The notes under the pieces were generated by a model, which was not told the origin of the DNA, searched no databases, and saw only the letters and a program-made list of their open reading frames with translations. The position numbers and the translations under genes are program-made. Positions 10,625-36,261 of a DNA stretch of 64,000 nucleotides are shown here, one piece after another (position 1 is the stretch's first letter; each line of letters starts with the position of its first letter). This DNA comes from Alphaproteobacteria bacterium (GTDB lineage: Bacteria; Pseudomonadota; Alphaproteobacteria; Bin95): contig CBDBGH010000003.1 of the NCBI GenBank assembly GCA_965205265.1, positions 5,024,001 through 5,088,000 on the forward strand. The letters are read 5' to 3'.

Positions 10625-11479
10625 GTGACAGGCAACAACGATGCGGGAGCGGTGCTGCGGACCGCCGCCTGGAAAGGCGATATCCCCGGCCTGAAGCAAT
10701 TGCTCGCCGACGGTGCGGACCCGGACGCCGTCGCGGATGACGGATGTGCGGCCCTGCATCTGGCGGCGGAGGCAGGCCGTCCTGAATGCATGCGGGTTCT
10801 GCTCGAGGCCGGAGCCGACCCGAATGTCCAGGATGATTCGGGTCTTGCCCCGCTGCATGTGGCCTCGCTCACCGGACATGTCGGAGCGATCACCCTTCTG
10901 GTGAAGGCCGGGGCCGATCCGGAAATGCGGGATGAAGAGCGCGGCGAGACACCGCTTTGCTGGGCGGTTGCCGGCGTCAACGAAATGGAGGCGGTTCGCG
11001 GCATATGCACTCTGGTCGGCGCCGGTGCGGACCCGAATGCGCGGAACGGGCTGGGTTGGACGCCGATGCAGAGGTTGTGCGCAAACCCCGGTCACGGAGA
11101 GGTCCTGCGGTGTCTTCTGGCCGCGGGCAGCGATCCGGATGGGACCGATGAGGATGGTTTCACTGTCCTGCACCATTTGGCACTTGCGCTTCCATTCGAC
11201 TCCGAAAGGCTCTCGATACTGGTTTCGGGCGGCGCCGATGTGAATGCCCGTGACGGGAAGGGGCGGACACCGCTGTATCTGGCGGCGGAGCGCGGACAGG
11301 TCGAATGGGTGCAGGCTCTTCTGGGAGTCGGCGCCGACCCGTCCATTCCGGGCAAGGCAGGCGTGCCGGTGGATGCGGTCATGCAGCGCCCGGCCGAAGG
11401 CGACACGGAACGGCGCGAGACGATTCTGGAGATGTTGCGCGAGGCGGTCGGGCACGCGGCGCCCGAACCGGGACCGTAG
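10625..11479 (+). CDS. Ankyrin repeat protein
   Basis: Repeated G(x)TPLH/AALH...GADP units. Confidence 0.92.
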   Translation: MTGNNDAGAVLRTAAWKGDIPGLKQLLADGADPDAVADDGCAALHLAAEAGRPECMRVLLEAGADPNVQDDSGLAPLHVASLTGHVGAITLLVKAGADPEMRDEERGETPLCWAVAGVNEMEAVRGICTLVGAGADPNARNGLGWTPMQRLCANPGHGEVLRCLLAAGSDPDGTDEDGFTVLHHLALALPFDSERLSILVSGGADVNARDGKGRTPLYLAAERGQVEWVQALLGVGADPSIPGKAGVPVDAVMQRPAEGDTERRETILEMLREAVGHAAPEPGP

Positions 11480-11483
11480 CGGA

Positions 11484-12422
11484 ATGATGGAGCGGAACTC
11501 TCTGCAGGACCGGTTGGAAGCGGCAGTGCAGGATGGCGATGTTGCGGCGGTGAGGACGCTGCTGGAATCGGGTGCGGACCCGAATGCCGGTAACGAAGAG
11601 GGCGCGACCGCCGTTCATGCGGCGGCCAGGGGCTCGAGTCCGGACTGCCTGCGCGTGCTTCTTGAAGCCGGAGGCAGTCCGGACGGCAGGACCGGTGAGG
11701 GGTGTTCATCATGGCTGGAGGCGCCGCTTGTTTCAGCGGCTTTCAAGGGACGGGCGGATATGGCGCTGGCGCTTGTCGAAGCCGGGGCGGACGTGAATGT
11801 GAAGGCCGGCAACCGGGAAACGCCGCTGCACTGGAGCGTGCAGGATGCCGAAGGCGTCCTGACGCGGCGTCTTCTCGAAGCCGGTGCGGATCCGAACGCC
11901 CGGAACCTCATGGGCGAAACCCCGCTCCACGCGGCCGCATGGGTGGGGAATGCCGACGGCATCCGGATACTCGTCGAGGCGGGCGCCACGGTGGATGCGG
12001 AGGACGATGAAGGCATGTCGCCGCTGGCCTGCGCCTCCATGGGCGCAAGCGGCTGCGTGCGGGCGCTGCTCGCGGCCGGGGCCGATGCGGGAGCGAAGGC
12101 CGGTCCGGGCCGGACAGCGCTGGTCCGGGCCTGCTGGCACGGGCTTGAGGACAATGTCCGCATGCTGCTCGAGGCCGGGGCCGACCCGGACGGTGTGGGC
12201 GACAGCGCTGAATCTCCGCTTCATGCTGCGGCCTGGGACGGCAACCCGGCCATTGTGGGGATGTTGCTTCAGGCCGGTGCAGACCCGGGGGTCACGGCCT
12301 CGGGCAGGGCCGGAACGCCCGGGGAGTGGGCGCGGGCCAGGGACAATGGCGAGGCCGCCGCTCTTCTCGGGGAAGCTCTCGGAAGCGACAGGGAGCAGGG
12401 CCGATGCGGGCCGGAAGCGTAG
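11484..12422 (+). CDS. Ankyrin repeat protein
   Basis: Ankyrin units; start at MMERNS just after the upstream stop codon. Confidence 0.92.
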   Translation: MMERNSLQDRLEAAVQDGDVAAVRTLLESGADPNAGNEEGATAVHAAARGSSPDCLRVLLEAGGSPDGRTGEGCSSWLEAPLVSAAFKGRADMALALVEAGADVNVKAGNRETPLHWSVQDAEGVLTRRLLEAGADPNARNLMGETPLHAAAWVGNADGIRILVEAGATVDAEDDEGMSPLACASMGASGCVRALLAAGADAGAKAGPGRTALVRACWHGLEDNVRMLLEAGADPDGVGDSAESPLHAAAWDGNPAIVGMLLQAGADPGVTASGRAGTPGEWARARDNGEAAALLGEALGSDREQGRCGPEA

Positions 12423-12469
12423 AAGCGGCGGATCGGGCAAGGGCCGACGCCGCCGGGATGGGGTGAGAG

Positions 12470-13860
12470 ATGAGTGAACCTGTGACGCGCGAGCGGAATC
12501 TCACGGCACGGCTGGTGCATGCGGTCGGAGCCGCCATCGACCGCGAGGCGGTCAAGAACGTCTCCGCGGCACTCGAGGCCGGGGCGGACCCGAACGGCGT
12601 CCATATCCTCGAATCCGGCGTCAGCAGGACGCCGCTGACGGCGGCGGTCGACTTCGCGAGCGTTCCCGCCGCGGTCAGTGTGCTTCTCGATGCCGGCGCC
12701 GATCCCGATCAGCCGGGACAGGACGGGGCGGCTCCCCTGCACATGGCTGCCCGCGACCCGGAAGGGACCGCTGCGGCGGCTGTCCTGTTGCTGAGGGCCG
12801 GCGCCGGTGTTGCTGTCCGGGACAGCAAGGGAGCCACGCCCCTTCACCATGCGTGCGGCGAAGGCAGCGAAGCGGTGGTGGCCGTGCTCCTTGCGTCCGG
12901 GGCGGATCCGGAAGCGAGGGACAACCGGGGCAGGACGCCGCTGCATCTGGCCTGCAGCGGCGGAGGCGTCGGGGCGCGGCTGCTTCTCGATACAGGGGCC
13001 GCTCCCGACCCCGTCGACGAAAGCGGACGGACTCCCCTCCACGATGCGGCGCTGGGAGGCTGGAGAGAGGCGGTAGAGATCCTGCTGGAGTTCGATGCCG
13101 ACCCGAACCGCCGGGCCGGACCGGCGGACCGGTCGCGCACGCCGCTGCATTTCCTGGCGGAGGGACGGGGCGGCGACATGGCCGCCCATGCCCTGCTCGC
13201 CGCCGGGGCGGATCCCGCGGCGACCGATGACAAGGGCGATCTGGCCCTGCATCTGGCGGCGCGGACGGGAGCGGACAGGGTGGCGCTGGCGCTCCTGGCG
13301 AGGAAGCATCCGCGGAAGTCCTCGACGGGGAAGGCCGCACGCCCTTGGCGATCGCGGTGGAAGAGGGCAATGGCGACATAGCCTCCTTCCTGGTGCATGC
13401 GGGAGCCGACCCGAACACGCGGTCCGAGTCGGACTGGACCGCCCTGTTCGGCGCCATAGCGGCCGACAGGGATTACGTGGTCGGGAAGCTTCTGGAAGCG
13501 GGCGCCGATCCCAACCAGAGGTTCGGCGAGGAAGCGGCACTGCACCAGGCCGTGGGCGCCCCGGTCGATATGCGGCCGGAGGAATGCGCCGCGGAGATGG
13601 TGAGGGTGCTTCTCGACGCCGGTGCGGATGCGAATGCGCGTGACGGTGCGGGCGTGACGCCGCTGCACCATGCTGCCCACCAGGGCCGGGTGGACTGCTT
13701 GAAACTCCTGCTCGCCGCCGGGGCGGATCCCGAGATGGCGGACAATGCCGGCCGGCGTCCGGCGGATGAGGCCGCGCACGGTCCGGCCCACGACGAGATA
13801 TCCGGCCTTCTTGCACAGGCGGCCCGAATTCGGGCCGGGTCGCCGGATCCCGGCATGTAG
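12470..13860 (+). pseudogene. Ankyrin repeat protein with a frameshift near 13300
   Basis: ORF 12470..13381 loses the ankyrin pattern at about 13300, where another frame reads AEVLDGEGRTPLAIAVEEG and continues to 13860; real frameshift or sequencing error. Confidence 0.8.
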
Positions 13861-13878
13861 AAGAAAGGGAGACAGGCA

Positions 13879-14802
13879 ATGGTCGATTTCCGGGATATGC
13901 GGGGGAACGAAATACGCCGGTTCCTGGCGGATGGCGGCAGGATCGATGCCAGGGACGACATATTCGGCGAGACGCTCCTGCATGTCGCCGTTCGGCTGGA
14001 CGATGAGGGCCTTGTCAGGGAACTGCTCGCCGCCGGGGCCGATCCCAATGAAGGAGACGGGAAGGGGAGGACACCGCTCTTTGCGGCGGCCCACATCGGG
14101 GACGCGTCCGTGGTGAAGGCCCTGCTGGAAGGCGGGGCCCGGCCGGACGAGCGCGATGTGGAATATACGACCGCGCTGCATCTGGCGGCGCAGGGAGGCA
14201 GTGTCGCCAACATCGGGCTTCTGCTCGCCGCCGGCGCCGATCCGGAAGCGCGGGACGAGTTGGGCGCAACGCCATTGCATCTGGGGGCCCTGAACGGTCG
14301 GCTCGACAGCGTGCAGGCGCTTCTCGGGGGAGGGGCCGATGCGAGCGCACGCACGAGGGCCGGCGGCGAAACGGCGCTTCACTGGGCGATGACGGTCGAG
14401 GGAGGCCGGGGTGAGGAGATTGTTGCCGCTCTTCTTGGGGCGGGAGCGGATCCGAATACGCGGAACGGGATGGAAGAGACGCCGCTTCACTGGGCGGCGT
14501 CGGGCCTCGAGGAAGGCGGAAGGATCGCGGCGCTTCTGGAAGCCGGGGCCGACCCCGGCGCGCGCAACAAGTGGGAGGCGACTCCCCTGCATGAGGCCGC
14601 CCAGGCGCGCAAGGCGGACGCCGTGCGGATCCTCCTCGCCGCGGGCGCCGATCCCGATGCCACGGACGACGAGGGTAAGACGCCCATGGAGTGGGCGATG
14701 CCGGTCGTGGGCGACAATTCGGAAGTGATGGGCCTGCTGGAGAAAGCGGCGGCAGACCGCAGAGCCGCCGCCGGACTTCCGGAGCCCGTGTCGGGTGGCT
14801 GA
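13879..14802 (+). CDS. Ankyrin repeat protein
   Basis: About 8 ankyrin units. Confidence 0.93.
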   Translation: MVDFRDMRGNEIRRFLADGGRIDARDDIFGETLLHVAVRLDDEGLVRELLAAGADPNEGDGKGRTPLFAAAHIGDASVVKALLEGGARPDERDVEYTTALHLAAQGGSVANIGLLLAAGADPEARDELGATPLHLGALNGRLDSVQALLGGGADASARTRAGGETALHWAMTVEGGRGEEIVAALLGAGADPNTRNGMEETPLHWAASGLEEGGRIAALLEAGADPGARNKWEATPLHEAAQARKADAVRILLAAGADPDATDDEGKTPMEWAMPVVGDNSEVMGLLEKAAADRRAAAGLPEPVSGG

Positions 14803-21980: not shown

Positions 21981-24173
21981 TCAGCCGTTGCCCCGCGCCT
22001 CGAAGAGTCCGCCTCCGTGGTGGGACGTGCGGCCGAGCATGACAGGCCCGGCCTGGGCGGCCCGGAAGGTGAGCCGGACCCACGCGTCGATGCCGCCCCG
22101 CTCTCCCGTGACGATGGAGGTTCCGAGAATGTCGATCTTCTCGGCCGCGGGCAGCCGGGCCCGATGCATCTCGGTCCTGATGTCCTTCTCGACAAGGGCC
22201 GGAACCGGCCGGTTCCTTTCGATGAACCGGGTGACCCGATAGGGGGTAATCGTCTCCCATACGCGGCTCGGGACAAACAGCGGGTCGCTGTCGGCCCGGA
22301 CGGGGACCGGCTCGGTGCCCAGGACCCCTTCGGCGCCGGCGACGATCTCCCTCATGCCGGACACGGCCTGTTCCACGAGCCTGTGGCCCTCACCGATCTC
22401 GTCGGGGAAGTTGCCATCGGCATTGCGGTGACCGGGCGCCAGCCACAGGATGCGGCGGCGCGCGAGATCCGTGCAGATGAACACATGCCGGTGCCTGCCG
22501 TCGCGCGAGCGGATCGGGCCGCTCGAGTTGACCGGATGACCCGACACATAGGGTGGAAGCCGACGCCGGCGGCCGATCAGGTCCTGCGCGCGGGCCATCA
22601 TGGCCCGCCGCGCGGCCTGCGTGACGGCCATCGGGTCCGCATCCCGCCCGATATCGGAAACGATCTGCAGTGCCGTGATGCCGGAGGTCTGCTCCTCGGG
22701 GCGCATCAGCCCCAGCCCGAGAAACCGGCCGTCGCCGACAAGGACGGGACCGGAAACGGGTTTCGAGAACTCGATTTCGGCATGCCAGAGCCGGGACTGC
22801 GAGAACCGGGTTCCCGGTGAGAAGGAGCGCGAATGAAGCCCCTCGTTGTCGGGGGAGGTGCGCCGCACGGCAACGGACAGGGCCGGGATGGTGATGCCGG
22901 CATAGCGGAGCGCCTTCCGCACGGCCTGCACCGCATGCTGTTCGCCGCGCCTCACATCGGTGCCCGAGACGGCGCCGCGCTTCTCGCGCGGCCGCTCCGG
23001 CACCGCGATCGGGGTGACGGTGCGCCAATAGCGCGACCTGCCCTCGTACCGCTCGACCATGCGGCGGCTGCCGCCCGGGTGGAGTTCCGCCCGGACCGAG
23101 CCGTCTTCACGGGTCCACGCAATCTGGGAGAAAGCCCAGGAGACCTCGTCGCCGGGAATCGGGCAGGAGCGCGGCACATAGACGGCCACACGCCGGATCA
23201 TCATGTCGGAGTCCAGGTGGCCTATCGAGGGGAGGGGAACGATGCGCACCCTGGACAGGGCGTCGTCGCGCTGGACGCCGCGGCCGATCAGGAAACGCTC
23301 GACCGTGTCGGCGAGGTCGGGAGAGTTCTCCCGGATCAGCCCGGCGGCCCGGTCGCGGATATCCTCGACGAATGCCACCGCACGGTCGAGCGTGGTTGCC
23401 GAGTAACCGCGTCCCTCGCCGTCCAGGACGTCGAACAACAGGCGCTCGTCGGGCGTATTGTAGCGCACGGGTGCAAGCGCGGGCTTGGCGGGCTGCTCGA
23501 AGACAGCGACGTCGTTCCGGCCCAGGCGCTCGCGCGAAAAACGCGACAGGTTCTGCCTGTGACGCCTGCGCAGACTTTCGAGGGAGCCGGGTTTGGGGCA
23601 CAGCAGCGATGGCCCGGCGCGGCCCCGGTCGGAAGGGGTATAGACGACGATCCCGGGCTGCTGGAACAGGAGGTCGCGTTCCTCGGTGTCAATGATCTTC
23701 CCGGAACCCCAGGCCTGATCGAAACCCCGTCCGAGCTGGTAGATCGCCCTGGCCGCGTCGCAGACCTCCCGGGCGTAGCCGGTCCGGTCCCCGTTATTCC
23801 CGATATCCCAGCAATAGTGGATGGGGATGGCCTCATCGAAGATCCGGTATTGCTGCGGTTTCGGCACCTTGATCGAGGCAAGCGCCTCGTTGAGGTCCAC
23901 CGACGGCCCTCCCGGGATGGCGGAGTCCATGTCGTTGTTCGGGACATAGGGCGTGACGCCTTCATGCCGGGTCGCCGGCGGGGCGCCGATGACAGGCGGT
24001 GCGAGGCCCTCGAGCCAGCCGAGAGCCTCGAGCAGGCCGGGGCGGACGGTGCCGCCCTCGGCCGACCCGGCAATCAGCGCCTGGAACACACGGCCGGGCG
24101 CCGGAGGCCAGTCGCCCGTGCCATGGTAGCGTCCTTCGCCGAACCGGACGCTCAGGAGGAGGGACCGGCTCAT
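21981..24173 (-). CDS. csb2: Type I-G Csb2 (Cas5/Cas6 fusion)
   Basis: GRYHG..DWPPAPGRVFQALIAG; QLGRG; GPVLVGDGRFLGLGL and GPVMLGRTSHHGGGLF glycine-rich loops. Confidence 0.93.
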   Translation of the reverse strand: MSRSLLLSVRFGEGRYHGTGDWPPAPGRVFQALIAGSAEGGTVRPGLLEALGWLEGLAPPVIGAPPATRHEGVTPYVPNNDMDSAIPGGPSVDLNEALASIKVPKPQQYRIFDEAIPIHYCWDIGNNGDRTGYAREVCDAARAIYQLGRGFDQAWGSGKIIDTEERDLLFQQPGIVVYTPSDRGRAGPSLLCPKPGSLESLRRRHRQNLSRFSRERLGRNDVAVFEQPAKPALAPVRYNTPDERLLFDVLDGEGRGYSATTLDRAVAFVEDIRDRAAGLIRENSPDLADTVERFLIGRGVQRDDALSRVRIVPLPSIGHLDSDMMIRRVAVYVPRSCPIPGDEVSWAFSQIAWTREDGSVRAELHPGGSRRMVERYEGRSRYWRTVTPIAVPERPREKRGAVSGTDVRRGEQHAVQAVRKALRYAGITIPALSVAVRRTSPDNEGLHSRSFSPGTRFSQSRLWHAEIEFSKPVSGPVLVGDGRFLGLGLMRPEEQTSGITALQIVSDIGRDADPMAVTQAARRAMMARAQDLIGRRRRLPPYVSGHPVNSSGPIRSRDGRHRHVFICTDLARRRILWLAPGHRNADGNFPDEIGEGHRLVEQAVSGMREIVAGAEGVLGTEPVPVRADSDPLFVPSRVWETITPYRVTRFIERNRPVPALVEKDIRTEMHRARLPAAEKIDILGTSIVTGERGGIDAWVRLTFRAAQAGPVMLGRTSHHGGGLFEARGNG

Positions 24174-24177
24174 CGGG

Positions 24178-25257
24178 TCAGGCCGCCTCGTCGGCGGGGA
24201 GGCCGATATCGCGGCGGGCCCTCGCGCGCTCGTAGGCAACCGACCGGCTCGGCCCGACGCCCCATTCGGCCGCCGCGGCGCGGGCGACTTCGACCGCATT
24301 CCCGGCATTGAGGTCGAGCGCCTCGCGCTGGCCGTTATGCATCACGACTTCCCATGACGCCGTCCTGTCCGGATCCAGCGTCAGCAGGCAGCCCTGCCGG
24401 AGGAACAGGTTCGATGGCGTGGTGGCCGCGACAACAGCGAGGCCGAGCAGGTAGCGGCGCATGGCTTCGCCCTTCTCGCCGCGCAGGCGGCGAAGGGCCA
24501 CCAGGTTGATCGTGGTGGAGCGGATGATCTCGCCATGCACGATGACGCCGCCAAGCTCCTCGCCGACGCTCGGCACCGTGGAATAGCCGCGCCCGGAGAG
24601 GTCGTTCTTGTGCCTGACGGCCTCCTCGTCCGTCACGATGCCTTCCTCGCGAGCGGAGATGGTCGGATTGTACACGGAGCTGCGCTCGATTTCGTGGGCA
24701 TCGGTTGCCCGGATCACCGACTGGATGATCCGCGGAATCTTGACGCCGCTCGCGCGGGAATCCCAGCAACCGAACAGGGCCGATGTCGGGGCCATCTTGA
24801 CGAGTGCCGTATAGTCGTCGGCATCCTTGATCGTCAGGAAGATGGTCTGGATTTCCCGGTCGAGTTCCGTGCCGCGAAGGGTGGCGTCGGCGAGCCGGTG
24901 CGCGAAGGTCAGGATCGAGGCCACGCGGTCATTGCCATGCGTGACATCGATCTGCGGCACGAGATCCGCCAGAGGGTTCTCCTCGCCGTGCCGGCGCATG
25001 AAGACGGGTTCCATCTGGTTGGCCTGGCTCGCCACGCTGTCGATCGTCACGATCGTGCTGCCGTCGCCGAGCGTGTCGATGTTGTACCTCGACCTTTTCC
25101 CCGTCGGGTCCTTTTCGGACCGTGGATAGGACGGGGGGAAAATCACGGAGTGGTGGCCTTCGACCGGCATCAGCGCCTGCTGCAGCGTCAGCGCAACCGG
25201 GCCGTCGCGGTCGTTCGCGCAGAGCGTCGCGAACGCGGTATCGAATTCCGTTGTCAT
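24178..25257 (-). CDS. csb1: Type I-G Csb1/Cas7u backbone
   Basis: VIFPPSY, IDSVASQANQME, HRLADA, PTSALFGCWDSR, LRQGCLL. Confidence 0.93.
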   Translation of the reverse strand: MTTEFDTAFATLCANDRDGPVALTLQQALMPVEGHHSVIFPPSYPRSEKDPTGKRSRYNIDTLGDGSTIVTIDSVASQANQMEPVFMRRHGEENPLADLVPQIDVTHGNDRVASILTFAHRLADATLRGTELDREIQTIFLTIKDADDYTALVKMAPTSALFGCWDSRASGVKIPRIIQSVIRATDAHEIERSSVYNPTISAREEGIVTDEEAVRHKNDLSGRGYSTVPSVGEELGGVIVHGEIIRSTTINLVALRRLRGEKGEAMRRYLLGLAVVAATTPSNLFLRQGCLLTLDPDRTASWEVVMHNGQREALDLNAGNAVEVARAAAAEWGVGPSRSVAYERARARRDIGLPADEAA

Positions 25258-26141
25258 TGAGTCCTCTCTTCGGTTACCTGGTTGATGGACCTCGCCCGGT
25301 TCGGGCCCTGAGGTTCGCCGCATACGACGCGGAACAGGCGGAATGCCTGTCCCGGGACGACCGGTTTGCGCATGCCCAGGGCGGCGCGCAGGAATATCGG
25401 GTCGTGCAGCTGCCCGTTCTCGATTCCAGCGACGCCGTAACTGAACAGCAGCCGCGTGATATGGGCGGGCCGGGCATGCGTCAGGCCGATGGCTGCCAGC
25501 ACCTCCACGAGGGGGTAGCCTCGCGTGGTCATGGCCTTGCCATGGGCATTCAACGAGAAACCGATCTCGACCGGGATATAGTCCGACCGCCAGTCGAAAC
25601 GCATCCGGCGGCCGCCCACCCGAATGGACGACATCGAGAAAGGGTCTTCCGCATGGTCGAGAATGCCCTCGTCCCGGGCCGCCTCGAGACAGTGCTGGAC
25701 GATGAGGGCGCCGGGCGCCCCGCCCATCCCCGTCCAGAACTTCGCTGTCTCGCGTCGGGCCTCGTCGCCCCAATGGTCGATGACGATCCGCTGGGCGCCG
25801 TCGTCGAGCAGCGCAGGCAGCTTTGCCGGCGTATCGAGATGGGGCATCGGGAAGGCAATGCCCGGCGTAACCGAGGTCTCGACCTTCTCCGCCCAGCTGC
25901 CCAGCACGCAGGGAGAGCCGGGCGGCAGGAGCATCGAGACCCTTGCGTTGTCGAGAAACTCCAGCACCCTGCGGACCGGGTCCACCTCTCCGGGCGTCTC
26001 GATTTCGAACCGGCCTTCGGCTTCGCACCAGGAGAAGCCGCCCATGGCTTCGCCCGCAAGACTGTTGGCGGCCTCGAGAAATCCCAGGCAGGCAAAGACC
26101 TGGCCGGGATTCAGCAGGTCGACCGGAATCGACTGTCTCAT
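25254..26141 (-). CDS. cas8u2: Type I-G large subunit Cas8u2/Csb3
   Basis: IPVDLLNPGQVFACLGFLE...KFWTG...FDWR...GFS...VEVLAAIGL; ATGA-coupled on both sides. Confidence 0.88.
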   Translation of the reverse strand: MRQSIPVDLLNPGQVFACLGFLEAANSLAGEAMGGFSWCEAEGRFEIETPGEVDPVRRVLEFLDNARVSMLLPPGSPCVLGSWAEKVETSVTPGIAFPMPHLDTPAKLPALLDDGAQRIVIDHWGDEARRETAKFWTGMGGAPGALIVQHCLEAARDEGILDHAEDPFSMSSIRVGGRRMRFDWRSDYIPVEIGFSLNAHGKAMTTRGYPLVEVLAAIGLTHARPAHITRLLFSYGVAGIENGQLHDPIFLRAALGMRKPVVPGQAFRLFRVVCGEPQGPNRARSINQVTEERTQ

Positions 26142-28894
26142 CGGTAGGCCTCCTCGATGGCCGCCTGGAACTGCGCGCGCGAGGCGCGGTAGTTCGCCGA
26201 GCGCAACAGGGATTCCCACCACGCCAGTCCCCATGGTCCCCAGATGCGTTGTTGCCGCGCATAACGCTGTGCGATCGCCAGGCCTTCGGTGGCGGCGTGC
26301 CGGGGCGGGAGGTCATCGGCGCCCTTGATGCCTATGACCGGACGGGCCTGGCCGTGATGCGACGCGATCAGGTGCAGCGCCAGCTCGAAGCGCGGGTCGT
26401 CCCGGGCAAGATCGAGGCCGTTCCTCGCCGCCAGAACTGTCGAGACGAACTCGTGGCGGTAGCGCGACAGCATGCTTCGTTTCAGGCGTTTGGCGGACTT
26501 GGCGTAGGGGTTTGCCGCCCAGTCCGAAGGCACGCCATAGGCGCGCTGCCACCGCCGCACGGCCTTGCCGTCGTCGTGGTGACGCGCCGCGGTGACCAGC
26601 ATGGCCCTGTCGGCCGCCTGTAAATCCAGGGCATCGGCGATATGGGCGGCTTGACCGCATACCTCGCGCACATGATCCTGGAGCGTTTCCGCCTTCAGCG
26701 AGGTGGCCCGGTGCCGTTCGCCGGACTCCGCTCCGTCGCGCGCCTGCACGGACAACCAGCGCAGGGGCATCTCGTCTTCGTCCAGACGCCACACGAACGC
26801 ATCGATTTCCTGCCATACGACGCCGTCCTCGACGATGGCGCCGCGGTCGGCTCCTGTGGAGACGCGGATCCGGTAGGGCGAGGCCGGAAGGTCTCCGGAG
26901 GCCTCGTTCCCTAGGCCCCAATTGTCTTCGGGGGTCGAAACGGCGGTGTCCGCCTTGATATCCAGGTGGCCGGCGGCGAGCCCGCCAAGACGGGCATCGA
27001 CGACGAGACGCCGTCCCCATAGCCGCCGGCTGAAATTGTCCTGCGCGGCCCGTGAGGCCCGCGACAGGTTAATCAGGTCCCGGTGGACGAGCATTTCCCG
27101 AAAGCTGCCGCTCTGGCTGAGCACCACGGCGACCGGTGCGTCGGGGCGCTTGAGCGGATAAAGGTCGTCATGGACCGGTTCGGGTTCGGCGGTTGCGCCC
27201 GCGACTGCCGCCACCCTGGACAGCAGCCAGGCCAGCACGTCGGCGCTGTCGGCCCAAAGGGTTTCGGCCTGCAGTGATCGGGCGGCCTCGAAAAAGGTCT
27301 CGACATGGTAGCCGTAGGGTGGGGAAAAACGCCGTCCGCGGTCCGTGTCCTGCATGATGACCGGCAGATAGTGGCGCCAGAGCACGGATGTGCGCGGCGC
27401 GCGTTCCTGCCAGCCATGCAGCCAGGGCCCTATGCGAGGCCGGCCGGTATGGGAGAAAAGGGATGTCATGGACCAGGAATCGACTGTCGCCCGTTCCAGG
27501 TCCGGGTAGAGCGGCACGGACGGGGCGGCGGCCCGGACGGACCGGCGAAGGTCCTGACACCGGTAGATGGCCGACAGGGCTTCGGGTCCGGCCTTCACCA
27601 TATCCGCTCCGGCCGGCGGGAGGCCGGAGAGCAGGGAGCGCACGGCGGTGATCGCGGGGTCCACCCGTTTTTCGTCCGCGGTCCTGTCGATGACGGCAAT
27701 GCGCGCCGTGCGGTCGCCGCTGCGCCCGACCCGGCCGAACCGGCGCACCATGCGCGGCCAGTCGCCCACAAGGTCGCAGACCATGGCGTCGGCGTCGAGA
27801 TCGCTGGCGATTTCCCCGGCCAGGGTGGAAATCAGGAAGCGCGGAGCGTCCATGTCGCGGGGGCGGCCATCGCCTGTAAAGCCGCTCTCTGCAAGCCACT
27901 CCGAAAGTTCGCGGCGCTCGCGGGTGCGCTGGCCCTCGAGCAGGAGGGCGGAATGTCGGCCCGCCGGCTTTTTCCCGAGATACCGGTTGATGCCGGCCAG
28001 GATGCGCAGGGCATCCTCACGCGCATCGACGAAGATCAGGATGCGCCGTTCCCCGTCCTCCGCATACGCCCGCGCCCGGTCCACGACTTCGGAAGCGAAG
28101 GCGGCGCCCCGCGCCGGACAGCCATGGACCGACAACTCCTTGTCGGCTGCCAGGCGCTTGGCGATAACCGGATGGGACAGGTCCTCGGCTTCCAGGGTGA
28201 AGAGGCCGGTAGTGGCGCGGTTCACCTGGCCCGAGCTCGCCATGGCCATGACGCGCAGCCCCGGCAGGAGATGCCTGTTGGCCGAATCCGGGGCGCCGAA
28301 CTCATGGGCGCCACGCTCGATTCGGCGCAGCAGGCTCTCGAAAGACGGCATGAGGTCGCGGTCATCGAGCACGATCAGACAGTCACAGGCGAGATTGGCG
28401 GCGGCCAGGGACCGCACGGAGCGATGAAGCCCGTATCCGCTGAAGAGCAGGGCCGAGCCGATCATGTCGACGGAACCGACTATGACCGACGGCAGGTGGG
28501 GATGATAGAGCCAGTCCGAGGAATCGACCCAGGCGCCGCGGAGCGTCGCGATGGGCAGATGTCCGTCCTCGTCCAGACCGAGGCCCTTCCGCAGGGCTTC
28601 CGAGCCCTGGACGGCGGCATGGGCCGCCTCTGCAAGTGCTGTCGCCCGGTCGATGACCGCGGCGCTGTGCACGACATAGGCAAGGCGGCGCGGCACGGGA
28701 GCCCCGGCGGCTCGCGCGGCGAGCCAGACGGCCATCACGGAAGCGCGTCCGCTTCCCGCCGGAATATCCACGACGGGCGGAACGGCACCGCCCATGAAAC
28801 CGTCATGAAGACGTTCGTGCCAGGGAAGGGGCGGGTGCCCGGTTACAGCCTCGAACAGTGCGCTCAATGATGGATTTCCGGCTTTCTGCTGCAC
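26138..28894 (-). CDS. cas3: Type I-G Cas3 (helicase + C-terminal HD) with degenerate catalytic motifs
   Basis: I-G architecture with C-terminal HD (LQDH, HHDDGK, RHE, HHG, GPWGLAWWESLLR); Walker A GSGRA, motif II LDDRD; GTG start at 28894 after a GAGGA RBS. Confidence 0.92.
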   Translation of the reverse strand: MQQKAGNPSLSALFEAVTGHPPLPWHERLHDGFMGGAVPPVVDIPAGSGRASVMAVWLAARAAGAPVPRRLAYVVHSAAVIDRATALAEAAHAAVQGSEALRKGLGLDEDGHLPIATLRGAWVDSSDWLYHPHLPSVIVGSVDMIGSALLFSGYGLHRSVRSLAAANLACDCLIVLDDRDLMPSFESLLRRIERGAHEFGAPDSANRHLLPGLRVMAMASSGQVNRATTGLFTLEAEDLSHPVIAKRLAADKELSVHGCPARGAAFASEVVDRARAYAEDGERRILIFVDAREDALRILAGINRYLGKKPAGRHSALLLEGQRTRERRELSEWLAESGFTGDGRPRDMDAPRFLISTLAGEIASDLDADAMVCDLVGDWPRMVRRFGRVGRSGDRTARIAVIDRTADEKRVDPAITAVRSLLSGLPPAGADMVKAGPEALSAIYRCQDLRRSVRAAAPSVPLYPDLERATVDSWSMTSLFSHTGRPRIGPWLHGWQERAPRTSVLWRHYLPVIMQDTDRGRRFSPPYGYHVETFFEAARSLQAETLWADSADVLAWLLSRVAAVAGATAEPEPVHDDLYPLKRPDAPVAVVLSQSGSFREMLVHRDLINLSRASRAAQDNFSRRLWGRRLVVDARLGGLAAGHLDIKADTAVSTPEDNWGLGNEASGDLPASPYRIRVSTGADRGAIVEDGVVWQEIDAFVWRLDEDEMPLRWLSVQARDGAESGERHRATSLKAETLQDHVREVCGQAAHIADALDLQAADRAMLVTAARHHDDGKAVRRWQRAYGVPSDWAANPYAKSAKRLKRSMLSRYRHEFVSTVLAARNGLDLARDDPRFELALHLIASHHGQARPVIGIKGADDLPPRHAATEGLAIAQRYARQQRIWGPWGLAWWESLLRSANYRASRAQFQAAIEEAYR

Positions 28895-28967
28895 CTGTCG
28901 TCCTCTGTCTCGGTGTTGGACCAGAACGTCCCTTGCGACGCTAAAACGCTTGTCACCCTCATAAATC

Positions 28968-28996
28968 ATAATACGAATATAATTCGTCCCTGTCAA
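28968..28996 (-). promoter_or_regulatory. Sigma70 promoter of the cas operon
   Basis: TTGACA (28996-28991), 17-bp spacer, TATTAT (28973-28968) in an AT-rich patch. Confidence 0.85.
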
Positions 28997-29039
28997 CCCG
29001 CCGGCCGTGTGGTGCGATTTGTTGTTTTTTGTCATGGTG

Positions 29040-29048
29040 TGCTAGGAT
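29040..29048 (+). promoter_or_regulatory. Possible extended -10 promoter of the mini-array
   Basis: TGCTAGGAT shortly before the first pseudo-repeat, preceded by a T-rich tract. Confidence 0.4.
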
Positions 29049-29063
29049 GCATCCGCGCTGGAA

Positions 29064-29178
29064 AGCCTTCAGGTCATGACGGCGCCGGGCGATATTGAAG
29101 GGCATTGTGATTCATGAGCCGGTCTGCTGATCGGCGATGGTTTCACAACCGGAGCGGATGCTCCGGTCTCATTGATGT
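29064..29178 (+). CRISPR. Single-spacer degenerate mini-array (crRNA-like regulator, CreR-type)
   Basis: Pseudo-repeat ending ATTGAAGG (29094-29101), about 38-nt spacer, then a second repeat with stem ACCGGAGC-GGAT-GCTCCGGT and CTCATTGATG; spacer 5' end matches the cas promoter. Confidence 0.82.
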
Positions 29179-29181
29179 GTC

Positions 29182-29209
29182 GGCCCGGGAGAATGCGGGC
29201 TCCCGGGCC
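29182..29209 (+). terminator. GC-rich hairpin after the mini-array
   Basis: GGCCCGGGAG / CTCCCGGGCC 10-bp stem; weak U-tract. Confidence 0.45.
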
Positions 29210-29411
29210 GCGGTTGTTCTGTGTGATAGCCGCTCCGGATTTCGTGGGGAACCCGGTCCCGATATTGTGGAATAGCCGTTTCAGAAACTGCAGTGCCTTG
29301 TGTTTCAGCTGACACCGGAATTCGCATGGCGGATTTCCGGGCCGGAGTCGACGCCAATTCCCGCTCGGTAGTGGAGACGAGGGTCGTCCCGTGTTATGAG
29401 AAGATGTGCCC

Positions 29412-29534
29412 GTGACCTTCCACACCGATGTGCTCCGCGAGCCGCGGAAGCGGCTGTGGGAGATGCTGGGCGGCACGCCGCCGGGCTTCGTCCTTTACGG
29501 AGGCACGGCCCCGGCATTGAGGCGGCTGGGGTAA
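29412..29534 (+). pseudogene. Truncated AbiEii-like nucleotidyltransferase remnant
   Basis: Reads VTFHTDVLREPRKRLWEMLGGTPPGFVLYGGTAPALRRLG then stop. Confidence 0.6.
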
Positions 29535-29539
29535 TCAGG

Positions 29540-30565
29540 ATGCGCGACAAACCGATTGGCGCGATCTGGCGGCCGGTGCGGGATCTGGCTCCTGAGCATC
29601 GCGGCTTTTCGCATGAGCCCGCCCGGCAGGCGGCTCGCCGCTGGCAGGAGAGCAGGAAGAAGCTCGAGGACCCGGAGATCGACCGGTCCTCCATGGATGT
29701 GTGGCTCCGGTCGCAGAGACGGGCCTTTGCCATCGAGACCGGCCAGATCGAGGGCCTTTATCTGTTGCGCCGGGGCGTGACCGAGACCCTGATAGCCGAA
29801 GGCTTCGACAACGTCCGGGGGGCCCATTCGGCAGGCGACATTGACGATGACACCATCAAGGGGCTGCTACAGGATCAGGAGACAGCCCTTGAGATGATGT
29901 TCGCGCATGTCAGGGAAGAGCGCCCGCTGACGACGTCGGCGATCAAGGAGTGGCACGCGCTCCTGACGCGGCACCAGGACACGGCAACGGGCATCGACCC
30001 GTTCGGGAAGAAAATCGAGATACCGCTGCGCCGGGGCCAGTGGAAAATACGGTCGAACAATCCCCGCCGGCATGACGGGATCATCCACGAATACTGTCCG
30101 CCGGAGCAGGTGGAAACGGAGATGGAGCGTTTCCTGAAATTCCACGAGGAACACGCTGGCCTGAACCTTGCGCCGGAGACGGAAGCTGCCTGGCTACACC
30201 ACGAATTCGTGCGCATCCACCCGTTTCAGGACGGCAATGGCCGTATATCGCGGCTGCTGATGGCTTACGCCTATGCCAGGGCAGGTGAGTTCCCGCCCGT
30301 CATTCCGGCGGAAAGGAAGGATGACTATATCGATGCCCTCGATGCCGCGGATGAAGGAAACTTCCCGGCGCTGGTCGAGTATCTGGGCGATCTGGCGGCA
30401 GGCCGCTCAAGGGCGGCGGCGCTTCGGGCAGAAGGCATCGTGGCCGGGCGTACGCAGTACCGTCACGGCAATGGCGGCATCACCTCGAAGGGCACTTACC
30501 GTTCACTTGAGGCCCTGGGCAGTGACTGGGAACCGCCGTCGCCGTCGCCGTTCGACGATGATTGA
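29540..30565 (+). CDS. Fic family protein
   Basis: Intact HPFQDGNGRISR; AIETGQIEG inhibitory-helix-like motif. Confidence 0.92.
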   Translation: MRDKPIGAIWRPVRDLAPEHRGFSHEPARQAARRWQESRKKLEDPEIDRSSMDVWLRSQRRAFAIETGQIEGLYLLRRGVTETLIAEGFDNVRGAHSAGDIDDDTIKGLLQDQETALEMMFAHVREERPLTTSAIKEWHALLTRHQDTATGIDPFGKKIEIPLRRGQWKIRSNNPRRHDGIIHEYCPPEQVETEMERFLKFHEEHAGLNLAPETEAAWLHHEFVRIHPFQDGNGRISRLLMAYAYARAGEFPPVIPAERKDDYIDALDAADEGNFPALVEYLGDLAAGRSRAAALRAEGIVAGRTQYRHGNGGITSKGTYRSLEALGSDWEPPSPSPFDDD

Positions 30566-30989
30566 GGGGGCAGGTGAGATTCCGGACGAGATCCTGCTTG
30601 GGGTGGCGCGGCGGGTGGTCTGGTTCCAGCCGCCGCAGGAGACGCTGCAGGACGAAGTCCAATTCCTGAGCCATGTCATGATCTACGGCCTGCCGGAGGA
30701 TGTGGTCGCGGTCCGCGATGCCTATGGCGACGAGGCATTCCGCAACACCTTGCGCAACGCCTGGCCCGGCATTTTCGACCCGCGCTCCTGGTTCTACTGG
30801 CACACGGTGCTCGACATGCTGCCCGTGCCCCCGCTTCCCGTCCGCCGCTTCCCTGTGGCGCCGGGGGAGCCGCCCCTGGAGGTGCATCCTTCCCTGCAGG
30901 GGCATGGCGGGCCGCCCAGAGGGCGCAGATATTCGACCAGCGCCGGCATGGTGCCTCGCCCTCCCCCGGGAGGAAGTGCGGCAGTCTAG
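30558..30989 (+). CDS. Small hypothetical protein of the kind found next to AbiEii genes
   Basis: ARRVVWFQPP...FLSHVMIYG...PGIFDPRSWFYWH. Confidence 0.65.
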   Translation: MIEGAGEIPDEILLGVARRVVWFQPPQETLQDEVQFLSHVMIYGLPEDVVAVRDAYGDEAFRNTLRNAWPGIFDPRSWFYWHTVLDMLPVPPLPVRRFPVAPGEPPLEVHPSLQGHGGPPRGRRYSTSAGMVPRPPPGGSAAV

Positions 30990-31864
30990 AGGAAGCTCGG
31001 CTGGGGTTGGCGTTCGGCGGCAAGCGGATTGAGCCACAGCACCTCGGTGCGTTCCAGGGCGCCGTCGGCGAGGCTGGCGCGCTCGACTTTCGTCCAGCCA
31101 CGCAGCTGCCGGTCGTAGAGCCGGGACGGGTAGGCCGAGAGAATGACCATGCCGTGCAGGCGCTTCAATGCGTTCAGGAGCGCGCGATGGTCGTCGGTAC
31201 TCATCTCGTGCGGGTAGGAATGGTAGCGTTCGCCCTTCTTTTTCTTCGTTGACCGGGTTCCGGGAAGGTAGGGCGGATCGCAGTAGAAAAGGGTTTCCTC
31301 CCCGTCGTGCATGGTCATGACCCTGATCGCGTCCCGTTTCTCGATCACGACCCCGCGAAGCCGTTCGGTGAAAGCGGGAAGGGCATCGGGATAATTCATC
31401 CAGTCGCGCGAGGCGGTCGTGCCGGACTGGTTCACGCGGGCGCGGAAACCCGTCCTGACGGCCCGGTTGTGCCCGTCGGACCCGAATCCCATGAGTGAGC
31501 GCACGACAAGGCGGCGGGCGGTCTCGTAGGGCTCGTCCGTCGGCTCGTAGGCCTCCTCGAACTCGGTGCGCGAGAAAGGCGTAAGCTCAAGAAGATTCCG
31601 AAACCGGGCGGCCTGAACAGGGTCCCGCAATATCCTGAAAAGCGCGACCGCCTCGTCGTCGAGATCGTTGTATATCTCCACGGGCGCGCGCGCCTTCCTG
31701 AGGAGGACGGATGCAGCGCCGCCGAAGCTCTCGACATAGCGCTTGTGCTCCGGGAAATGGGACACGATCCACGGCGCCAACAGCCACTTGCCGCCATGCC
31801 AGCGCAAGACCGGTCGCTTGGGAGGACAGGGAGGCGGCGCGGTAAGGAGATGGCCGTCATACAT
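30986..31864 (-). CDS. D12-class DNA adenine methyltransferase (orphan)
   Basis: LRWHGGKW, YVESFGGAASVL, YNDLD, FYCDPPY. Confidence 0.92.
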   Translation of the reverse strand: MYDGHLLTAPPPCPPKRPVLRWHGGKWLLAPWIVSHFPEHKRYVESFGGAASVLLRKARAPVEIYNDLDDEAVALFRILRDPVQAARFRNLLELTPFSRTEFEEAYEPTDEPYETARRLVVRSLMGFGSDGHNRAVRTGFRARVNQSGTTASRDWMNYPDALPAFTERLRGVVIEKRDAIRVMTMHDGEETLFYCDPPYLPGTRSTKKKKGERYHSYPHEMSTDDHRALLNALKRLHGMVILSAYPSRLYDRQLRGWTKVERASLADGALERTEVLWLNPLAAERQPQPSFL

Positions 31865-31898
31865 CTTCGGGGAAACCGTCTCTCCGCGGTGCCGGTGG

Positions 31899-32930
31899 CT
31901 ATCCGGGCCCGGGCGCATCGTCGAGGGCGGGCCCGGAGCCATTGTCCGGAAGGCGGACCGGACGGTCGGCCGCCCGGAATTGCACCGTCTGCCGGACGTC
32001 TTCGTTGACTTCGAGCAAGGCCCCTTCGCCTGCCGAAAAGACAATGCGGGCTTCGGCGTCGATGTCCTGGCTCCAGCGGGGGAAATGACAATCGACAACG
32101 CGCCGCGCGATTTGCTGGAGAGCGCGCCTGAATGTCATGTCATCCAGATCGCGCCGTTCCCCGAGAACCACGTCGAACATGCCCCGGACGGTTATGGCGT
32201 CAAGGTTGACCTCCGGGTCGGGGCCATCGGCGGCCGCAACCATTGCCATATTCCCGAGGTGGACCCTCTCACCCGGGTCGCGGCTTTCCAGGAAAACGGA
32301 GATGGTATGGATGCCGGCGTCCTGCATCGCCTCGGTAAGGCAGGCGAGATTGTGACGATGGCCCTCCTGCGCCAGACGCCGGTGAGCGGCCTCGCGGGGT
32401 TCGTTGCGAATTTCCTCGTCCGAAAGCGGGGCAAGCAGCGGGGTCTGTTTCCAGGCCTCGGACGTCCACTGGAGGTCGGCCCGTTGGAGCCGGATGTCCG
32501 CTTCGTTCGTGCGGACGGTGATTTCGGCCTCGCCGCCGAAGTCCTCGGACCAGCCGGAATACGATGCGTCGAGCACCTCGTCCAGAGTGTGTTGCAGCGC
32601 CTCCACGAAGCTGAGCGAGGACATGGGTAGCCGGGCCCACCGGCCCGACTGCCCGTGAACCAGTTGCTGGAGGCCCGACACGGTGATCTGTGGCGGCCGG
32701 TCCGTCAAAGGCTGGCCCGAGGCCGGAACATAACGGACCGGGCCGACGGTCACGTTGCCTTCGTGGCCGGAAATGCAGGCCTCGATCTCGGCTATGCCCG
32801 CAATCTGCATGAAGCTCGTCAGCACCGCGAGATTATGGCGGGCGATGACGGCGGGGAGATCGTCGTCGGTCGCGGGGCCCGGTGGAGTCCTGAAATAGTG
32901 GGCTTCGGAGATGCTGCGTTCGCTGGGCAT
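31899..32930 (-). CDS. Tandem-domain DUF6878-like paralog
   Basis: Two copies of HNLA.L...M..AGI..I...(Y/F)..WS(E/Q)D..(G/A)EA.I. Confidence 0.7.
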   Translation of the reverse strand: MPSERSISEAHYFRTPPGPATDDDLPAVIARHNLAVLTSFMQIAGIAEIEACISGHEGNVTVGPVRYVPASGQPLTDRPPQITVSGLQQLVHGQSGRWARLPMSSLSFVEALQHTLDEVLDASYSGWSEDFGGEAEITVRTNEADIRLQRADLQWTSEAWKQTPLLAPLSDEEIRNEPREAAHRRLAQEGHRHNLACLTEAMQDAGIHTISVFLESRDPGERVHLGNMAMVAAADGPDPEVNLDAITVRGMFDVVLGERRDLDDMTFRRALQQIARRVVDCHFPRWSQDIDAEARIVFSAGEGALLEVNEDVRQTVQFRAADRPVRLPDNGSGPALDDAPGPG

Positions 32931-35491: not shown

Positions 35492-36261
35492 CTCTCCCCG
35501 GCGTGATCGCCGGGTTCCCATTGAAGTCGCGCGAATCGAGCCGGCAGACCCAGGCATTCGTGAAACTCTCCCCGGCGTGATCGCCGGGTTCCCATTGAAG
35601 TGAGACGAGATGAACAAGGCAGCCTGGGATCGTTACGCACTCTCCCCGGCGTGATCGCCGGGTTCCCCATTGAAGTGCATCCGATTGCGCCAAAGCTCCA
35701 GCGCTTCGGCTCCTCTCCCCGGCGTGCTCGCCGGGGCCCCACATTGAAGTTCGTAGTAACAGACGTTTTTCGGCGGGCCCTTGGTGACCTCTCCCCGGCG
35801 TGCTCGCCGGGGTCCCCATCATTGAAGAAGCCGTCAACAGGATGCCGACGATGACGAGCAGCGCCGTGCTCGCCCCGGCATGATCGCCGGGGCTACCATT
35901 GAAGCGGTCAAATATGCCACCGCATAGCGAGCCCAAGCAGCCCCCACGCCGGCCTGCGGGCCGGATGCATACATTGAAGCCTCGGCAAACGCGTTTCGGA
36001 GCCACCGAATGTTCGGAAGTTTGCCCGGCCTCCGGGCCGGACACATTGAAGCCCTCATATTTCCGCCGCGGCAAGGCCCTCCGGGCAGGGCACTCGCACA
36101 TTGAAGCCGCCCCGAATCCCGGCAAGCTATGGTTCAATCGAAGAGATCTCCCCGGCCTCTGGCCGGGCACACCACACCACACATTGAAGGTAGGCAACAC
36201 CAGGCTTGATTGCCCCCTGGTTTGCCGGCCCCGGCGAAACTGCCGGGGCTCGAATTGAAGC
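35492..36261 (+). CRISPR. Type I-G CRISPR array, 11 repeats / 10 spacers, progressively divergent repeats
   Basis: 36-bp repeat CTCTCCCCGGCGTGATCGCCGGGTTCCCATTGAAGT at 35492 and 35566; variants at about 35640, 35713, 35789, 35869, 35941, 36020, 36071, 36146 and 36224, all ending ATTGAAG. Confidence 0.95.

Follow-up and report, generated by a model that had tools for sequence, protein, structure and literature searches.

A degenerate mini-CRISPR beside a type I-G cas operon and its partial match to the predicted cas3 promoter

Guide RNAs that regulate their own Cas effector

Subtype I-G, earlier named I-U, has to our knowledge the least studied of the type I effectors, and we know of no detailed description of its self-regulation. 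In the available text of 10.1101/2022.08.08.503147, the PAM of type I-G is given as TTN, the Csb2 cut is placed 4 nt 3' of the repeat hairpin, which yields an 8-nt handle, and every sixth base of the crRNA is described as flipped out.

In types I-B, I-E and V-A, degenerate mini-CRISPRs termed CreR bring the effector, through partial pairing, to the promoter from which it is expressed (Liu et al., 10.1101/2023.03.10.532045). According to the available text of this preprint, pseudo-repeat 1 of a CreR keeps the 5' handle and pseudo-repeat 2 the 3' handle, and a manual search had turned up creA-like elements for I-D, I-C, I-E, I-F and I-U (Figure S7). The CreA RNA of CreTA (type I-B haloarchaea and relatives) likewise uses Cascade as a repressor through partial pairing, and its target is a toxin gene. 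Shmakov et al. (10.1101/2023.03.03.530964) described mini-arrays of types I-E, I-F1, I-D and I-B, which stand alone near cas3, resemble repeats and have spacers of partial complementarity to cas promoters; one of these mini-arrays was validated, for I-F1. The terms I-G and I-U are absent from the main text of that study; its supplementary tables may list I-G cases. In the type II-A system of Streptococcus pyogenes, tracr-L is a natural guide of short complementarity that makes the effector repress its own promoter.

Here we analysed a 64,000-nt stretch of DNA, hereafter the window, in which a mini-array unit (29054-29220, plus strand) is located between cas3 and a divergent Fic-domain gene, in a G+C trough of 45-60%. 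The element is laid out like a CreR. It is a degenerate mini-CRISPR in a cas locus, 6 kb from the array, with two degenerate repeats around one spacer-like stretch; the 8-nt 5' handle is kept by pseudo-repeat 1 and the hairpin by pseudo-repeat 2. The 5', PAM-proximal part of the spacer alone is complementary to a TTC-flanked site, and this site lies in the computed promoter of the effector cas genes. In contrast to the CreR RNAs in the available text of the preprint, the element belongs to a type I-G system with Cas8g2, is known from sequence alone, and would repress an operon that begins with cas3. Its predicted pairing extends over 17 nt, as three 5-nt blocks next to a TTC PAM, whereas that of Salmonella I-E covers 15 consecutive nt.

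With CreA, as far as it is described in the available sources, the element shares the RNA anatomy and the presumed use of Cascade as a repressor by way of partial pairing. CreA, however, silences a toxin gene, whereas the promoter in the window reads into cas3 and no toxin was recognised. The element also resembles the mini-arrays of Shmakov et al. in being a stand-alone repeat-like sequence near cas3 whose spacer is partly complementary to a cas promoter. tracr-L, from what is available on it, differs in its class 2 single-protein effector, its RNA scaffold and its 11-bp match.

An earlier note on this DNA had regarded CreA and CreR RNAs as known in other CRISPR subtypes. This is correct for I-B, I-E and V-A. 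It is not correct that I-G was left out, since elements for I-U were already stated in the CreR preprint, and the element in the window belongs to that known kind. In the literature searched, supplements aside, no paper was found that treats CreR together with I-G, and CreTA and I-U occurred together in the CreR preprint only. As far as the literature searches reach, a quantified three-block rule for type I-G, as set out below, is not in print.

The I-G operon, the mini-array and the predicted cas3 promoter

The source genome has 5.7 Mb and 68% G+C. Profile searches in the window revealed a minus-strand operon of four genes, cas3g-cas8g2-cas7g-csb2, from which the mini-array unit diverges. Each of the four interference genes has an open frame and a score higher than the curated family cut-off:

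26138-28894, minus strand: cas3g, first gene of the operon (TIGR02621, 453 bits, cut-off 400)
25254-26234, minus strand: cas8g2, large subunit of the GSU0052 type, exact start uncertain (TIGR04106, 172.7 bits, cut-off 125)
24178-25260 (upper end approximate), minus strand: cas7g, also called csb1 (TIGR02570, 113 bits, cut-off 38)
21981-24308 (ORF bounds), minus strand: csb2, a Cas5-Cas6 fusion (TIGR02165, 279 bits, cut-off 45, residues 50-538)
35492-36261, plus strand: degenerating CRISPR array of 11 repeats (hairpin, short variable linker, ATTGAAG), 6 kb from the cas operon

By its predicted proteins (Cas3g, Cas8g2, Cas7g and Csb2 encoded together) the operon is type I-G of the Geobacter GSU0051-0054 variant, in agreement with the earlier note. 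The nearest Cas3g among 5.8 billion proteins was 49% identical. Translation of cas3g likely starts at the GTG at 28894-28892, which has GAGGA upstream; the predicted N-terminus agrees with the alignment consensus of 36 Cas3g proteins. A start at 29035, which would give a cas3 ORF of 965 aa, was rejected as misleading, as this longer ORF crosses the promoter and the TIGR02621 match begins only at its residue 58. We also discarded a 712-aa 'Cas7' ORF (24178-26316) as over-extended, its first ~355 residues being an out-of-frame reading across cas8g2. The other Csb1 of the genome aligns to this ORF from residue 371 onward, and the TIGR02570 match spans residues 22-194 of the trimmed cas7g ORF. The C-terminal part of the csb2 ORF (21981-22700) holds a second in-frame partial Csb2-like match (profile positions 254-490), which may be a duplicated Cas6-like domain; Pfam gave nothing for that part.

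No cas1 match was found in the window, no cas1, cas2 or cas4 stands beside the operon, and the genome's five cas1 matches all lie away from it. As judged from its predicted genes, the I-G module of the window is interference-only. Because adjoining adaptation genes are missing and the array is decaying, the genome could be in the course of losing this system.

Several other features of the window were noted. The ORFs at 29396-30565 and 30986-32098 cover the Fic/DOC-domain gene, which diverges from the mini-array, and a D12-class adenine methyltransferase gene, which sits between the cas operon and the CRISPR array. Against the NCBIfam XopAC/AvrAC subfamily the Fic gene scored 44.6 bits, far under the cut-off of 450. 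Positions 10700-14700 hold a long run of imperfect repeats, spaced mostly by multiples of 99 or about 210 nt, with a motif that we take to resemble ankyrin repeats.

The mini-array and its target comprise the following features:

29040-29048, plus strand: possible extended -10 TGCTAGGAT for the mini-array, a weak lead found by eye
29054-29101, plus strand: pseudo-repeat 1, an imperfect predicted helix (29054-29091) and then the 8-nt handle
29094-29101, plus strand: 8-nt handle ATTGAAGG
29102-29147, plus strand: spacer-like stretch (46 nt), target match limited to bases 1-17 (29102-29118)
29148-29177, plus strand: pseudo-repeat 2, with an 8-bp stem closed by the loop GGAT and, after CTC, the degenerate handle ATTGATGT
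29181-29220, plus strand: terminator-like hairpin (29181-29210, 11 pairs) with the tail CGGTTGTTCT
28991-28996, minus strand: -35 hexamer TTGACA of the predicted cas3 promoter (promoter scan)
28975-28977, minus strand: PAM 5'-TTC, immediately 5' of the protospacer on the non-target strand, read from the sequence
28968-28973, minus strand: -10 hexamer TATTAT of the predicted cas3 promoter (promoter scan)
28958-28974, minus strand: protospacer-like target of 17 nt that takes in the -10 box and the expected start of transcription

The handle, the spacer and the second repeat with its 8-bp stem, as first described in the earlier note, were recovered with the same coordinates and letters. In pseudo-repeat 2 the stem arms (29148-29155 and 29160-29167) are followed by CTCATTGATG at 29168-29177. 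The sole Rfam match was that of CRISPR-DR16 to pseudo-repeat 2 (18.4 bits, E 0.21), under the family threshold. Pseudo-repeat 1 has no repeat-like hairpin. Its predicted helix ends 2 nt before the handle and not 4 nt as under the Csb2 rule, so that an RNA 5' end at 29094 is a prediction. On the plus strand, the promoter scan of 28700-29500 yielded no promoter for the mini-array at its threshold.

The handle ATTGAAGG is comparable to those of the local array, in which ATTGAAG is followed by T, A, C or G. The handles of the mini-array are spaced by 76 nt; in the local array, the ten corresponding intervals measure 74, 75, 74, 78, 77, 75, 72, 55, 83 and 71 nt, eight of them within 71-78. The 46 nt from the first guide base to the stem of pseudo-repeat 2 exceed the corresponding distance in the local array by about 3 nt.

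The genome is heavily armed with CRISPR. Arrays similar to the local one were seen outside the window at C3:5279500-5280600 and C3:5292800-5296200. The stems in these three arrays vary widely and look drifted with compensating changes, each repeat keeps a hairpin and ATTGAAG (mostly CATTGAAG), and spacing is irregular toward one end. Further sets of two and three repeats occur at C3:4943358, 5227645 and 5308416-5318124. In addition to the five cas1 matches the genome holds at least four repeat families, namely one of the ATTGAAGC type, one of the GTCGCCCCCCGCGCGGGGGGCGCGGATTGAAAC type that occurs at four sites, and two more.

A second, canonical I-G locus (L096, C3:3404001-3423500) encodes a Csx17-type Cas8g (520 bits), Csb1, Csb2 and a fused Cas4/1, and its array comprises about 33 identical repeats with CCTCATTGAAGC at their end. 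Since its handle is almost the same as that of the mini-array, cross-loading between the two is conceivable. Upstream of cas3 in L096, the handle motif ATTGAAG was not seen by eye.

We then compared the guide GCATTGTGATTCATGAG (29102-29118, plus strand) with the minus-strand target GTATTATGATTTATGAG (28974-28958). The two are identical at 14/17 positions, with mismatches at 2, 6 and 12, TTC before the target, and no similarity beyond base 17, all as the earlier note had read them. Counting non-sixth positions only, the guide matches at 14/15. The one remaining difference, at position 2 in the seed, is a C-A mismatch that could weaken or abolish binding.

The target was also said to cover the TATTAT of a TTGACA-17-TATTAT promoter, and this minus-strand promoter was indeed the sole site of the promoter scan in 28700-29500 (11/12; shuffle mean 0.3 sites). 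It is predicted 75-100 nt upstream of the cas3 start, with the target at about 75 nt and a leader of 67 nt. These distances indicate that the obvious product of the promoter is the cas operon.

A 32-codon ORF (28864-28962, minus strand) begins about at the expected transcription start, with ATG at 28962-28960 and then AGG; its frame differs from that of cas3, whose start it overlaps. The existence of this ORF and the similar anatomy of CreA and CreR, as given in the available text of 10.1101/2023.03.10.532045, raise the alternative of a CreTA-type addiction module, in which a CreA-like antitoxin RNA would silence a toxic product such as this ORF. We consider this very unlikely, as the promoter, with its 67-nt leader, points to the cas operon, and the small ORF runs into the cas3 start, has no ribosome-binding site and has nothing known that suggests toxicity. 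Of a coupled toxin gene, which CreA has and CreR lacks, none was recognised at the locus, with the 32-codon ORF at the predicted start site as an improbable candidate. The preferred reading of the element is a Cas-regulating RNA of the CreR type.

To gauge the match, we scanned both strands of the 5.7-Mb genome with the guide 17-mer, counting the 15 non-sixth positions. Apart from the guide, which scored 15/15 against itself, the scan returned the site in the promoter at 14/15 and one further site at 13/15. Of 11.4 million positions, the best non-self match is thus a mere 128 nt away from its guide. The handle core ATTGAAG is rare, with 352 occurrences over the two genome strands (0.031 per kb per strand). 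The 17-mers after all 352 occurrences gave 1959 sites at 14/15 or better, 33 of them with a TTN PAM. Most of these guides are G+C-rich coding stretches, and among the 352 handle-adjacent guides the mini-array and the cas3 promoter form the only local TTN-flanked pair. We conclude that the guide-target match is more than chance. A wider regulon was not apparent, the guides of the other degenerate arrays of the genome having no local or convincing TTN-flanked self-match.

The ORFs that overlap the unit (29069-29476 minus, 28913-29098 plus and 29169-29357 minus) had no Pfam match. When 41 related genomes were searched at the DNA level, the mini-array intergenic region had no homologue in them; the only other match, of 34 nt (query bases 367-400), lay outside the mini-array element. 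In three of four further contigs compared, 28700-29500 was identical, which is uninformative on natural variants. Patterns built from handle and guide had no match in metagenome contigs or viral contigs, so that neither variant copies nor a phage mimic were seen.

The design in other type I-G loci

Because the locus has no close relative, we sought the same design in other I-G loci. A first set of 80 loci was collected by Cas3g alignment from species-representative genomes, and 76 of them had at least 300 nt upstream of cas3. Each TTGAA[AG]N on either strand of the last 1 kb upstream of cas3 was taken as a handle (n=107), and the next 17 nt were matched against the guide's own region, scoring the 15 non-sixth positions. 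Ten guides were significant at p<0.01 when all other positions of their own region served as mock guides. A nearby match of at least 13/15 was found for 13/107 guides, in 12 loci. A TTN PAM flanked 12/13 of these strong matches, compared with 4/94 for the weaker guides and 92/2436 for control mock guides with equally good matches; the TT dinucleotide background was 4.7%. This enrichment is unbiased, as the PAM had no role in choosing the sites.

The register of the mismatches was examined with 18-nt guides in which three positions were ignored, comparing the mask 6/12/18 with the five other 6-periodic masks. With the mask 6/12/18, four guides reached 15/15, eight reached at least 14 and 13 reached at least 13, against 0, 2-3 and 4-6 guides at these levels with the other masks.

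A second set of 80 metagenome contigs (69 usable loci, 77 guides) gave a similar picture. Matches of at least 13/15 were found for 9/77 guides, in 9/69 loci, and 8/9 of these had a TTN PAM, compared with 4/68 weaker guides; the exception was a palindromic stretch. The mask 6/12/18 yielded 2/5/9 guides, the other masks 0/0-2/3-6. In both sets the PAM is thus the 5'-TTN that the earlier note had assumed for type I-G and that the available text of 10.1101/2022.08.08.503147 states. All guide sequences differ, and the guide-target pairs are therefore independent. This is the outcome of the spacer/promoter covariation check proposed earlier: as far as can be judged from the DNA, independent I-G loci repeat the design with unrelated guide and target sequences, a covariation at the level of the family. 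The design is frequent yet not universal (12/76 and 9/69 loci).

The two 17-mers of the window can also be described as an imperfect inverted repeat, about 127 nt apart in an AT-rich intergenic region (G+C 45-60%), and such a repeat could be a chance similarity or could serve a DNA-binding protein or a mobile element. We regard this explanation as extremely unlikely. The match starts exactly past the 8-nt handle and exactly past TTC, and no other non-self site in 11.4 million positions is as good. In its mismatches at 6 and 12 and in its end at 17, it follows the pattern of 20 other loci with unrelated sequences. Moreover, a protein operator would not account for the repeat-like hairpin or the CRISPR-like spacing.

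We also compiled a position profile of 14 pairs: the 12 TTN-flanked matches of set 1, the pair of locus L057 (12/15, TTC, added by hand) and the pair of the window. A GGA-flanked second match in L092 was excluded. Of the 14 pairs, 10-14 match at each of positions 1-5, 7-11 and 13-17, three at position 6, five at position 12 and one to six at each of positions 18-36. Since the score by which the pairs were picked ignores positions 6 and 12, the dips there are in part a product of the scoring; the drop after 17 is not. Owing to this choice of pairs by score, the unbiased evidence consists of the mask test and the PAM counts rather than the profile. A mismatch at position 2, which in the earlier note was suggested to tune the strength of the circuit, occurs in only 3/14 profiled pairs, the window and two other loci.

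These data also bear on whether the element is an inert relic, that is, a formerly functional regulatory or self-targeting mini-array beside a decaying, adaptation-less I-G module. The degenerate repeats of the local array, the missing cas1, cas2 and cas4 by the operon (the five genomic cas1 matches being elsewhere), the poor pseudo-repeat 1 and the seed mismatch at position 2 would all suit a relic. Nevertheless, the four interference genes are open and above their family cut-offs, and the 14/15 match at constrained positions, the PAM, the hairpin of pseudo-repeat 2 and the terminator are intact. The mismatches fall mostly at positions tolerated in the family, and the one at position 2 is found in two other loci as well. 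We therefore consider a relic unlikely and retain the reading as a Cas-regulating guide.

The 13 other loci of the profile belong, as their records are titled, to Pseudomonadota, Planctomycetota, Verrucomicrobiota and Acidobacteriota. A Cas8g2-like protein follows cas3 in 10/10 loci tested, nine of them above the cut-off and one (L038) at 123.9 against 125. These 13 loci share a common layout. A first repeat with a well-kept handle precedes the spacer-like stretch, after which come a strong hairpin and CCYCATTG with either a spoiled handle or a T-run; the asymmetry of the two repeats is as in the window. Targets lay within 15 nt of a promoter-like site of at least 9/12 in 5/13 cases, compared with 99/3040 random places. 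L091 repeats the geometry of the window, with a -10 box that overlaps PAM and seed.

Among I-G loci of the same genus (L012-L014, Cas3g 44-46% identical), no significant guide-target pair was found. One of them, L013 (genome G015), contains a look-alike mini-array about 390 nt upstream of cas3, between that gene and cas4/1, consisting of ATTGAAGC, 44 nt, a 9-bp hairpin and CCTCATTGGGAC. Its best candidate target (TTA PAM, three G-T wobbles) was not significant with wobble allowed (p = 0.18).

Proposed autorepression of the cas operon

The local match, its TTN PAM, the 6/12/18 register and the end of pairing at about base 17 lead us to read the element as CreR-type. We consider it probable that 29054-29220 (plus strand) is a degenerate two-repeat mini-CRISPR that encodes a Cas-regulating RNA for the adjacent I-G module. 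The RNA-guided autorepression suggested in the earlier note fits all in silico checks of architecture, spacing, PAM register and recurrence.

Given the sequence anatomy of the element, the genome-wide uniqueness of its match and the recurrence of the design in unrelated I-G loci, the following mechanism can be proposed. The mini-array would be transcribed away from cas3, possibly from the weak, perhaps extended -10 promoter TGCTAGGAT, and transcription would end at the hairpin 29181-29210. Csb2 would bind the hairpin of pseudo-repeat 2, and the RNA would be trimmed to begin with the handle AUUGAAGG. A complex of Cas7g, Cas8g2 and Csb2 loaded with this RNA would recognise TTC at 28977-28975, and guide bases 1-5, 7-11 and 13-17 would pair with the promoter of cas3 on its template strand. 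The resulting short three-segment R-loop would lie over the -10 hexamer and the start site of Pcas3 and could in this way shut out RNA polymerase. Because pairing would end after three Cas7 segments, Cas3 would not be licensed to cut.

The expected outcome is negative feedback on the entire operon, cas3 included. As cas3 is the first gene, nuclease and complex would be held down together. By analogy with the CreR RNAs of other subtypes, for which this was shown, repression would be relieved when crRNAs titrate the effector or when anti-CRISPRs block it.

If this is true, the guide puts cas3 itself under feedback by the effector in this genome. As the second I-G system has a near-identical handle, the cas3 promoter might even sense the load of both effectors. 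CreR-type feedback would be extended to type I-G with an operon that begins with cas3, which would explain how a Cas3-containing operon is kept at a safe level yet stays responsive to anti-CRISPRs.

The survey turns the single observation into a testable rule at the level of the family. We tentatively propose, while giving it somewhat less than even chances, that self-regulating guides of Cas8g2-type I-G systems in at least four phyla pair in exactly three 5-nt blocks after TTN, leave positions 6 and 12 unpaired and do not pair at position 18 or beyond. The window and the 20 TTN-flanked pairs of other loci would then be natural examples of the pairing needed to bind without cutting, and the three-block rule would be usable for type I-G gene silencing tools. 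If the limit is selected, the three blocks would mark the R-loop length that divides 'bind and repress' from 'license Cas3'.
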